DNA of 9,377 nucleotides. Origin: a virus. Lineage: Duplodnaviria; Heunggongvirae; Uroviricota; Caudoviricetes. The stretch lies in the IMG/VR virus record IMGVR_UViG_2585427737_000013; one strand, given 5' to 3'. Position numbers: made by a program. Positions 1 to 3,000 of this stretch are shown one piece after another (positions within the stretch are counted from its first letter, which is position 1; each line of letters opens with the position of its first letter).

Positions 1-3000
1 AGGCCCCGGAACGTTATCGTTCACACGGACCGTGGAGGCCAGTACTGTTCAGCAGATTATCAGGCGCAACTGAAGCGGCATAATCTGCGTGGAAGTATGA
101 GCGCAAAAGGTTGCTGCTACGATAATGCCTGCGTGGAAAGCTTCTTTCATTCGCTGAAAGTGGAATGTATCCATGGAGAACACTTTATCAGCCGGGAAAT
201 AATGCTGGCAACGGTGTTTAATTATATCGAATGTGATTACAATCGGTGGCGGCGGCACAGTTGGTGTGGCGGCCTCAGTCCGGAACAATTTGAAAACAAG
301 AACCTCGCTTAGGCCTGTGTCCATATTACGTGGGTAGGATCAGACAACCACGCTAGCTCTACCCTGTGCCACAAAATGTCAATTTGCATCTGAACTAATG
401 CACTTTAATCTCGTCACTTCAATAAATACCGAACATCCCCCTGATAAAACGACAATATGCGCTGCATAACTTCGCTCTTCCGGCACTCGCGACAGATTAT
501 GTTTAGGCGACTGTCGTAGCGACGTATTTCTCCGTCAGGTAATGACCAGATAAGGTCCGGATCAACCACAACCGGTTTCTTCAGCTTTGCCCTCGATAAT
601 TTTTTGCGGGCATTTTGCCAGTCTTTACGAGCCTGTTCAGACGGGAATAACCCGTAGCCAGAATTGTATACATCGCCACTGGCAACCAGCTCTCTGGCCA
701 GAACGCTCATCAGATATCTTGTTGCCCCAGTTTTAGCTTCCAGTTGTCGTAACGTCTCGCGCCCACTCTGGCGTACGAGTTCAAGAACCTGCCCTTTAAT
801 TTTTTCCCGCTCTTCTTGTGTAAAAACTTTTGCCACAAGCCCTCCTGAAAATTACCTCATGACCAGAAATTAACACTTACCCCCTGAAGCCCGGCGGAAT
901 TTCGTTATCCGGTTCAGAAATATGATTCACACAACGCTGGTTGTTCGTGCCGCTTACCGGGAGCAACCAGGGGTTCTCAAAATTCCGGTCCGGTCCAAAA
1001 AACGTCGTCGCTCGCTGAACAAATTCCGTTCCCGTTTTCCCGGTAGCCGCCAAGTATCTTGCGTAACGCCTCACGCCATCCAGCATGGCCTCTGGTGGCA
1101 CCCCCTCGCGTAATCTGGCCTTCCAGGCACTGAAAGCGGATTTCTTCGGGTTTGCCCCAGCACGCAACGGGTACTCCCGCCAGACCTGTTCGAACACATC
1201 CGGATAATCCACTCGTCCCACAGACTGCCCGGTGTTTTCCGGGACTACCCGATCGGCTTCCCGCTGAATGGCGGAATCGGCTTCAGGCTGCTGCAGTTGG
1301 TGTGATTGCTCCGCCCTTGCGGTCATCACCTGCTGCACAGCGCCCGAATCGGCTTTCAGCGCATACGCTGAATCGGCTTCCGGTGTCGTGCCTGCTGGCT
1401 GACCAAGATTGACGGTCTGAACATCCCCTGCCTGGTTCGTGGCGTTTTTTACGCCATGGACCATAGTGTTTTGATCTTCTTGATCTGTATCTTTATCTGT
1501 ATCTTTATCTGTCGTGACTCGTCGTGACATGTGCGTGACATTTCGTGACGCGCCGTGACAATTGCCATTTTGTTCCCGCTTTCTTTCCCTCTCTCGCTGC
1601 GCCCTCTTGCGCTCTGCAGGAGATTTTGCGGTTTGCGAAATATTGCCGTTGTCCTCTTTAAGCACCTGGCGTTTTTCCCATCCAGTGATTAAATCACCAT
1701 CAAGTACCCGCCCCTGCATCGTCTGCAAAATTGAATCAATTACCTCTTCTGTCACGTCGAGCGCACTTGCCAAATCTTCTGTCGTGACATCAATGTGACC
1801 TCGCGTGACATTTCGTGACGCGCTCACCAGGAGGTGGATATACACTGCCATCACTGTTGCAATTGGCTGCCCTGACACCCTGGCAATTGTTCGCCACTTA
1901 GGGTCATTTGGCATGTCATGCCATAATCTGAGCCAAGCGTTAGCCATACTCACCTCTTCTGATACCGAATCTTTTTACTCACGAGTTGCCGGAAGCGATT
2001 CGATATGGCTATTGTCAGTCAATGTACTGCCACAGCATTTCCTGCCGGGCCACCACGGTTCATCTGATTGAAACCGGCGATTGCCACTGCGACAAAATCA
2101 TCAGCGTCTCTCACCAGTCGCTCCCGCGTCTCCACCAGCTCCCGAAAATAAGCTGAACTGTGGCTGCGCATTCTGGCCACCAGCAAAGGTGGCATTGCCT
2201 TTTCGATCGCTGGTAACAACGCCTGAATTTTTTCAACTGCATCAGGGGTGTCTTTCTCTACCCAGCGGAAAATTTTCTGGGTATTGCGAGCCAGGGCTTC
2301 CGGATGGCTGTCGTCATACAGTTCCGGGAACGTCATTCCCAGCTCGAAATACGCTTTGGTAATTTTCGCAGCCGGTACTTTTTCGCCGTCCGGATGCGCC
2401 CAGGCATTCATCGCCATGCGGATGTGTTCATGCTTGATTTTCATGAATCATTCTTTCCTTCGTTCGAGGTGCTATCCTGCTTCTTGTAAAGTTCTGGGTT
2501 GTATTTCAATTCACCGTTAGTAATTTCATCCAGTTCCATTGCGCGAAGTTTGGGAATAACTGCTTTCCACCGCACAACAGCCACATGTGAAATTCCAAGA
2601 GCCTCAGCTACTAGTCGCTTTTTTTTGAAATAGCGCAGAACATCATCTTTGAACATAAAACTCTCCTGTTATTTCGAGCAGGATGGTAACAATAGTTACA
2701 TAGCAATGTCAACCATAGCAACATCACTTGGTAGTAACATTGGTTACATGAAAAACACTATCAGCGAACGTATTCGGAATCGTCGAAAAGACGTTGGATT
2801 AACCCAACAGCAGGTTGCGAAAGCAATCGGCATATCTCGTGTATCCGTAACAAAATGGGAAAATGGCTCTTCAAAACCTGACGGTGAGAATTTGCATCTA
2901 CTGTCAAAATTGCTTTCCAAATCTCCTGAATGGATTCTTTATGGAAAGGACGGTCACGATAAAACCGATGATCTGCGTCTGAATCAGTATCCTTACATTA

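Follow-up and report, generated by a model that had tools for sequence, protein, structure and literature searches.

The DNA analysed here, called the window, is the whole 9,377-nucleotide stretch taken from IMG/VR virus record IMGVR_UViG_2585427737_000013 (Caudoviricetes). Among phages the window is matched best by Escherichia phage Tritos (92% identity over 85% of the window), and it represents the early region of a lambdoid Escherichia coli prophage close to Tritos. The replication initiator gene on its minus strand, whose product matches PHROG 3729 'replication initiation protein' with E = 1e-256, contains two arrays of a 6-bp repeat (the iterons), an A/T-rich tract adjoining one of the arrays, and a hairpin past the tract. 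We give a probability of about 80% to the reading that positions 1433-1819 are the vegetative replication origin of this prophage, written into its own initiator gene. On its sequence features, the element is best read as an origin of a known kind, iterons plus an unwinding element, placed inside the initiator gene. A first-pass annotation of the same DNA had proposed such an iteron-plus-A/T-rich origin within the initiator coding sequence; the location was confirmed by the open reading frame (ORF), and the proposal is supported by the codon phases of the repeats, their conservation in the family, the codon bias and duplex stability of the tract, and the clustering of the repeats in Tritos.

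On the plus strand, array A consists of exact CGTGAC copies at 1513, 1523, 1534, 1544 and 1554 (spacing 10/11/10/10) and was reported by TRF as a period-10 array at 1511-1560. Array B, 260 bp away, has exact copies at 1783, 1804 and 1814 and a degenerate TGTGAC at 1794 (spacing 11/10/10; positions 1794-1799 read GTCACA on the gene strand). The five array-A copies of the first-pass annotation were all recovered, but not at a strict 10-bp spacing; three of its four array-B copies are exact and one is degenerate; and the block that it saw repeated between the arrays is identical over 21 rather than 20 nucleotides. The 21-mer, two iterons with their spacer, suggests sequence exchange or duplication between arrays A and B. 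A single inverted iteron lies 27 bp gene-downstream of array B. The repeats are 6-bp cores in direct orientation within each array, separated by variable 4-5-bp spacers that hold little sequence information. The window has 11 CGTGAC sites, against 4.2 +/- 2.1 expected, a number reached in 0 of 200 shuffles, and nine of the 11 fall within 310 bp. Over the Tritos genome (46,360 bp) the hexamer occurs 25 times (20.7 expected), and its sole clusters are the two arrays in the initiator gene. The 12-bp A/T-rich tandem and the hairpin that had been noted beside array A were both borne out, by TRF and by folding, respectively. The coordinates of all features are collected in Table 1.

Table 1. Features of the putative origin, of the initiator gene and of the surrounding genes in the window (aa, amino acids; AF2, AlphaFold2 model).
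Feature	Position	Strand	Description or basis
Array A, five exact GTCACG (gene strand), spacing 10/10/11/10	1513-1559	-	encodes aa 130-145, disordered linker
Array B, four GTCACG (gene strand), spacing 10/10/11	1783-1819	-	encodes aa 43-55
Single inverted iteron, GTCACG	1751-1756	+	encodes D64-V65-T66, turn of the helix-turn-helix
21-mer GCGTGACATTTCGTGACGCGC, two iterons and spacer	1533-1553		identical to 1803-1823 in array B
A/T-rich tract, GATAAAGATACA x 2.9 then GATCAAGAAGATCAAAA	1469-1512	-	proposed DNA-unwinding element
Hairpin, arms 1433-1445 and 1451-1463	1433-1463	+	13-bp stem, 5-nt loop; T-rich run after it
Replication initiator, 356 aa	877-1947	-	ORF and translation, PHROG 3729
N-terminal winged-helix domain coding region (aa 1-95)	1663-1947	-	presumed iteron reader; AF2
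C-terminal 24 residues GTNNQRCVNHISEPDNEIPPGFRG, aa 333-356	880-951	-	resemble host DnaT C-terminus
DUF977/Ren-like gene	414-836	-	PHROG 142 'Ren-like exclusion protein'
cII/YdaT-like gene	2019-2444	-	
cro	2441-2656	-	
cI-like repressor	2649-3422	+	
DicF small RNA	4567-4618	+	Rfam RF00039, 76.7 bits
RecE-like exonuclease	5261-7741	+	
Integrase	8082-9377	+	

The hexamer GTCACG is read in all three codon phases (in gene order, 1, 2, 0, 2, 0 in array A and 2, 0, 1, 0 in array B) and is translated as VT, (x)SR or (x)CH/GH depending on the frame; the iterons are thus a DNA-level signal and no simple peptide repeat. Conservation was examined in homologues of the N-terminal domain of the initiator. 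This domain has 797 detectable relatives across Proteobacteria, named 'phage replisome organizer' by NCBI. A scan of one genome per species gave 80 loci, spread over Enterobacterales, Pseudomonas, Bordetella, Burkholderia, Sphingomonas, Janthinobacterium and further groups. In 53 of the 80 initiator-gene 5' regions, three or more adjacent pairs of exact hexamers were spaced by 10 or 11 bp, as was the case in none of 261 control segments taken from the same loci (p = 3e-42). The array architecture is kept in about 55-66 of the 80 species' homologues; both arrays occur in 55 loci, in which their first copies are a median of 258 bp apart. Array B lies at gene offsets of about +116 to +160 and array A at about +340 to +450, each array usually having 3-4 copies spaced by 10 bp (n = 243) or 11 bp (n = 55). 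A scan of viral contigs returned only 99-100% identical E. coli copies, in which the arrays are almost invariant.

The hexamer itself differs by clade (GTCACG, GTAACG, CGAACG(C), GCAACG or GTGACG) and never differs between the two arrays of a gene. Its change rewrites the protein in a frame-dependent manner. Between the related GCAACG and GTGACG clades, one two-base change read in differing frames turns AT..GN..AT..GN into VT..GD..VT..GD, so that the array-B peptide is SSAT-Q(G/C)N-ADAT-RGN in the former and SSVT-QGD-ADVT-RGD in the latter. In these sequences the iteron copies evolve in concert, as a DNA signal that the protein sequence follows. An increase in copy number was also found: in Escherichia albertii (L086) array B has six iterons, not four (gene offset +128 to +185), and the additional 21 nt (units of 10 + 11 bp, 7 codons) insert TCHGVSL into a loop of the N-terminal domain. 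A change in iteron copy number therefore directly remodels the protein. In several clades the last array-B iteron overlaps an inverted copy as a 10-bp palindrome (GTCACGTGAC, GCAACGTTGC, GTGACGTCAC; L002 at 2649-2658, L091, L004, L155, L157, L160 and L164), in place of which the window has a separate inverted copy; the arrangement suggests that a head-to-head iteron pair matters.

By their use of three codon phases, their concerted switches and their frequency of 53/80 against 0/261, the repeats are under nucleotide-level selection. The first-pass annotation had named codon-level repetition as a finding that would undo its reading. The peptides quoted at that time (DKDTDKDTD, RRVTT and NVT) agree with the translation. 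The protein does contain ASRNVT twice and DKDT in repetition, as it would if the repeats were mere codon or peptide repetition in a low-complexity segment. This explanation is contradicted by the reading of the hexamer in all three frames, by encoded residues that change per frame with the clade hexamer, by the two-iteron insertion of E. albertii, which adds seven unrelated residues, and by the codon bias of the A/T-rich tract at synonymous sites; we regard it as almost certainly wrong.

The tract next to array A contains a tandem of period 12 (2.9 copies, 1478-1512, TRF), has a GC content of 32% and is purine-rich on the gene strand. No other 40-bp duplex in all 9377 bp is as unstable as the segment 1469-1509 (nearest-neighbour dG -44.7; mean -55.9, sd 3.9). 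In almost all loci, whatever the iteron type, a tract of the (C/T)AGATAAAGA(T/A)A type directly follows array A. Codon usage was compared in 37 loci whose hosts are GC-rich (at least 58% GC in the locus). Tract codons gave a GAT:GAC ratio of 83:7, against 283:447 in the rest of the same genes (p = 7e-24), and an AAA:AAG ratio of 48:22, against 152:337 (p = 3e-9). From this biased use of GAT and AAA in GC-rich hosts, the A/T-richness of the tract is selected at synonymous sites. Two GATC (Dam) sites, at 1473 and 1482 and 9 bp apart, lie inside the tract, and AGATCT stands at the tract end in several relatives (e.g. L090, L096, L104, L109 and L126); the GATC sites may point to a link with methylation or SeqA.

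As single-stranded DNA the hairpin has a folding energy of -10.9 kcal/mol (z = -4.5) on the plus strand and -8.7 kcal/mol (z = -3.9) on the minus strand; owing to two G-T pairs, its stem is complete only on the plus, or template, strand, on which its loop is five T. Within 100 nt past the tract, 29 of 65 loci, against 47 of 449 controls, have a hairpin whose stem is 5 bp or longer and whose loop is 4 nt (p = 2.5e-10). A sense-strand TNNC loop (GNNA on the template) was present in 18 of the 65 loci and in one of the 449 control segments (p = 1e-16). The family hairpin lies 27-60 nt past array A; its stem sequences vary between loci (hairpin loci include L092, L097, L100, L102, L114, L115, L124, L136, L140, L142, L144, L157, L160 and L161), and the T of the TNNC loop falls at the wobble position of a Pro codon (CCT-NAC-GG). 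Nucleotide-level selection thereby extends to all three elements, the iterons, the tract and the hairpin. A role of the hairpin as a PriA/DnaT-type primosome assembly site was considered and dropped: a DnaT-like tail with the PxGFRG motif is confined to enterobacterial members of the N-domain family and is uncorrelated with the hairpin, none of the 17 TNNC-hairpin loci among the members with a complete ORF carrying it.

In the window the hairpin runs into TAGTGTTTTG (to 1472, plus strand), which gives it the form of an intrinsic terminator antisense to the initiator gene. The element could accordingly be explained at the RNA level, with the hairpin and its T-run as an antisense terminator or translation pause, the tract as a rare-codon pause and the hexamers as incidental. 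A terminator scan flags this very site on the plus strand, the codons of the A/T-rich tract are rare in GC-rich hosts and the hairpin falls between the two protein domains. The region nevertheless has no more terminator-like sites than chance would give (2 found, 2.5 expected), no antisense RNA promoter was found, and the nine phased hexamers with their clade-specific switches would be left unexplained, which makes an RNA-level explanation highly improbable.

From its N- to its C-terminus, the initiator is composed of a winged-helix domain, a basic helix, a disordered linker, a helical domain and a DnaT-like tail. In searches of PHROGs, residues 1-160 matched 'replisome organizer / replication initiation' and residues 200-356 matched 'DnaD-like helicase loader / primosomal protein'; in Tritos the protein is annotated as a replication protein or replisome organiser. 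An AF2 model of the N-terminal domain, computed from a 46-sequence alignment, has helices at 4-14, 16-25, 29-45, 56-63 and 67-77 and a beta hairpin at 78-88 (core pLDDT 86-94), followed by the basic helix at 110-127 and disorder at 131-159. The predicted fold is a winged helix. In Foldseek searches of the PDB with this domain, the top matches were all winged-helix regulators, none of them significant; the C-terminal domain, a small helical bundle in AF2, gave no significant or informative match in the PDB. The repeats had been said to encode linker peptides. In the model this is so for array A and the A/T-rich tract, which encode the disordered linker, but not for array B, which falls in the folded winged-helix domain and codes for the final turn of helix 3 and for the loop preceding the helix-turn-helix. 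That array B might encode the recognition helix, a binding site coding for its own reader, was ruled out by the position of the putative recognition helix (aa 67-77).

The two halves of the protein have different relatives. By tblastn, the N-terminal domain (aa 1-138) is 69% identical to Pseudomonas phage proteins, with matches that stop at residue 138, and the C-terminal domain, with matches that start at residues 158-160, recurs in SfV, ST64B, phiP27-like and Stx phages, whose N-terminal domains are different. Across species the same N-terminal domain and origin are joined to many unrelated C-termini. The module junction at residues 138-160 corresponds to about 1468-1535 of the window, that is, to array A and the A/T-rich tract, and these match boundaries make the linker that holds the putative origin the exchange point of initiator modules. 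The coincidence of the boundaries with array A and the tract, together with the fusion of one N-terminal domain to so many unrelated C-termini, could be taken to mean that tract and repeats are only microhomology for shuffling of the modules, with no origin function. Recombination history of this sort would leave unexplained the presence of array B in a folded domain, the strict 10-11-bp spacing, the concerted hexamer switches and the A/T-biased codons in GC-rich hosts, and we consider it very unlikely. Exchange of modules at the origin is also known in lambdoid phages and agrees with origin function.

The C-terminal tail GTNNQRCVNHISEPDNEIPPGFRG is identical to the C-terminus of E. coli DnaT at 16 of 24 positions (6aep, 2ru8, 9zbt) and matches NCBIfam NF002770 with E = 7e-4. 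It is kept in the C-domain family; among the N-domain family members with a complete ORF, 3 of 79 end in the PxGFRG tail, and a fourth (L104) carries the motif internally. No helicase or helicase-loader gene was found in the complete Tritos genome. Taken with this absence, the tail may be a mimic of the host primosome; how DnaT recruits DnaB/DnaC is itself still unknown (PMC13377028).

Around the initiator, the gene order cI, cro, cII-like, rep is the same as in lambda. Downstream of the initiator are the DUF977/Ren-like gene and a gene for a 91-residue protein with no assigned function; the Ren-like gene stands directly after the initiator, the place that lambda ren would occupy were P deleted. 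The antisense small RNA DicF is present here as in Qin-type prophages, and in Tritos homologues of dicB and ydfD come next. DnaA boxes (TTWTNCACA, at most one mismatch) occur at 27 sites in the window against 21 expected, with none in 1430-1660, and no IHF consensus site was found in the window.

We propose the following mechanism. The N-terminal winged-helix domain of the initiator would bind the 6-bp iterons, as suggested by its fold, the concerted switches and the precedents. With direct repeats 10-11 bp apart, successive protomers would sit on one face of the helix. The five sites of array A would nucleate a filament-like complex adjoining the strand-asymmetric A/T-rich tract, and the four sites of array B, 260 bp away, would probably serve, together with the inverted copy, in cooperative binding, looping or control. 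The complex would then melt the tract on supercoiled DNA, an expectation founded on duplex stability and codon bias. More speculatively, the inverted repeat at 1433-1463 may extrude, or may fold on the template strand once this is melted. Given the tail's resemblance to DnaT and the lack of a helicase or loader in Tritos, the C-terminal domain with its DnaT-like tail presumably recruits host DnaB/DnaC.

The same arrays could be protein-binding sites for control, in autoregulation, in copy control by handcuffing of the kind seen with plasmid control iterons, in exclusion of related phages or in fork arrest as proposed for SPP1 oriR, with the origin elsewhere. Of the two arrays only one adjoins the A/T-rich tract; the SPP1 initiator G38P binds a second, distant site that is thought to stall forks (PMC3485210); and with up to 4 copies of the region per E. 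coli genome, cross-talk between them is plausible. An origin elsewhere in Tritos would, however, have to do without iterons of this type, as no further hexamer cluster, and so no alternative iteron origin, is found in its whole genome. Array A is always joined directly to the least stable A/T-rich tract, itself under nucleotide-level selection, and the arrays are not at a promoter, a scan for internal promoters having given nothing above chance. We therefore judge a control-only function unlikely; a control role for array B alone is compatible with the origin reading and not opposed to it.

Several points weigh against that reading. That the initiator binds GTCACG, that the tract melts and that the element acts as an origin are all inferences. 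Homology to studied initiators was not demonstrable (lambda O, E = 0.31; G38P, hhalign probability below 1%), and the match to Pfam PF09681 scores 15.7 bits against a cut-off of 23.3. No phage-encoded helicase loader was found in the complete Tritos genome, and array B may serve in cooperativity, looping or control. The hairpin of the window does not have the TNNC loop typical of the family. Fourteen of the 80 homologues have no clear array in the exact-hexamer scan, some of these loci being truncated, whereas others may carry degenerate repeats. Finally, the association between N-terminal domain and iteron type is confounded by physical linkage, the arrays lying inside the same gene.

Of 5426 complete E. 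coli genomes, 2169 (40%) contain the 451-bp region at 1400-1850, in up to 4 places per genome, and PGAP gives it no name there beyond 'DNA-binding protein'. The initiator protein has many 'partial' entries at NCBI, which suggests that assemblies often break here. A literature search returned precedents from lambda, Stx phages, SPP1 and a Francisella phage and no description of the origin of this family, which is weak evidence because most subscription journals were not covered. The family is very common and apparently uncharacterised, and the origin principle itself is known.

From sequence comparison, the family has its own grammar of dual arrays, one of them in the coding sequence of the reader, a conserved AGATAAAGA-type tract and a template-strand hairpin. 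With its 6-bp core repeated at 10-11 bp, this grammar would allow automatic annotation of prophage origins. It would also predict incompatibility or cross-activation among co-resident prophages that have the same iteron type, and the element could serve as a compact one-protein replicon for vector building. The concerted change of iterons in three frames is a clean natural case of a DNA signal overriding protein-coding constraint, and the absence of a loader, with a DnaT-like tail in its place, points to an unexplored route of host helicase recruitment. The principle will not surprise a specialist; the concerted evolution across the whole family deserves an experiment, as does the loader-less, DnaT-mimicking initiator.

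A more far-reaching proposal, which we consider doubtful, is that this 'self-encoded' origin grammar, with co-evolution of site and reader and with the hairpin as a start signal, is common to hundreds of proteobacterial prophage initiators. If so, a switch of origin specificity would necessarily rewrite reader residues 43-55, and if the loop formed by these residues makes contact with DNA, the same nucleotides would carry the co-evolution of site and reader. The conserved GNNA template-strand hairpin, next to the melted tract, would then mark on single-stranded DNA the start of priming or helicase loading, whatever the C-terminal module, and the five natural hexamer variants would be a ready-made specificity code for a winged-helix/iteron pair.

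Among known systems, the comparison that had been drawn was with lambda, in which the origin, made up of iterons and an A/T-rich tract crucial for unwinding, sits in the central part of gene O (PMC7466680). In a re-reading of the oriλ sequence, the four iterons are 18 bp long, have dyad symmetry and occupy O offset +348 to +432. The parallel holds for order, polarity and position. Both origins lie mid-gene at similar offsets (+348 to +520 in lambda, +388 to +515 in the window), both consist of iterons, a sense-strand purine-rich A/T tract and an inverted repeat in the same order and polarity, and in both the iterons next to the tract and the tract itself encode the interdomain linker. The gene order is also alike, running from cI, cro and a cII-like gene to the initiator and a Ren-like gene. 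The parallel fails for the iteron type and the partner gene. The four lambda iterons are imperfect inverted repeats of 18-19 bp, 20-24 bp apart, and each is bound by an O dimer, whereas those of the window are 6-bp direct repeats 10-11 bp apart. Unlike lambda, the window has a second array inside the folded DNA-binding domain, and no P helicase-loader gene follows its initiator. The description of the initiator as O-like did not survive: BLASTP against lambda O gave E = 0.31, and no match to Pfam Phage_rep_O (PF04492) was obtained even at E <= 10.

The initiators of SfV, ST64B, phiP27-like and Stx phages have the same C-terminal domain as that of the window (50-58% identity over aa 245-356), including the DnaT-like tail. 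SfV orf39 contains four 21-bp repeats in mid-gene (L168:1296-1406), as the window carries mid-gene repeats. The SfV-type initiators differ in their N-terminal domain (PF13730/GntR-like) and in having long, lambda-like repeats spaced 21-24 bp. On the evidence of the SfV repeats, a linker-embedded origin is the rule for these modular initiators. The SaPI origins of Staphylococcus aureus reportedly have iterons of 6-8 bp in two sets, with an A/T-rich region, adjoining the initiator gene; their initiator is said to be of the helicase-primase type and the origin to lie outside the coding sequence.

In SPP1, oriL is embedded, like the element of the window, in the linker part of an initiator gene (gene 38, encoding G38P). 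It consists of about five boxes at 11-bp spacing (GAAACGACAC-like, L166:539-593) and then a 9-bp A/T tandem, AACAATGAT x 3 (596-627). The A/T-rich tandem is the unwinding element; G38P binds the oriL region, and in vitro a fragment of 356 bp drives theta replication (PMC5737612, PMC6316719). The name 'phage replisome organizer' is used by NCBI and by the Tritos annotators for the window protein, as it is for G38P. The differences are as follows. No equivalent of array B was seen in the N-domain coding part of gene 38; SPP1 encodes a loader and a helicase (G39P and G40P) and has a second site, oriR, and Tritos has neither; and G38P matches only Phg_2220_C in Pfam, a family that the window protein does not match. 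In hhalign comparisons with G38P, the N-domain profile reached a probability of 0.1% and the C-domain profile 0.2% (E = 0.25); the motif ARLREG/ARINEG...TFFG/TLFN in the C-domain alignment looks plausible but lies within this insignificant match. The below-cut-off match of the window protein to PF09681 (Phage_rep_org_N) aligns residues 5-123 with model positions 1-119 of 121 (E = 0.015), and at E <= 0.1 only 2 of 46 family members match that model. With homology to G38P not demonstrable and PF09681 below threshold, the relation to SPP1 is one of 'works like' and not of 'member of'. In layout the element of the window matches both oriλ and SPP1 oriL, and we claim membership of neither family. 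SPP1 oriL, with its gene offset of +360, comes nearest in position and grammar to array A with its 12-bp tandem.

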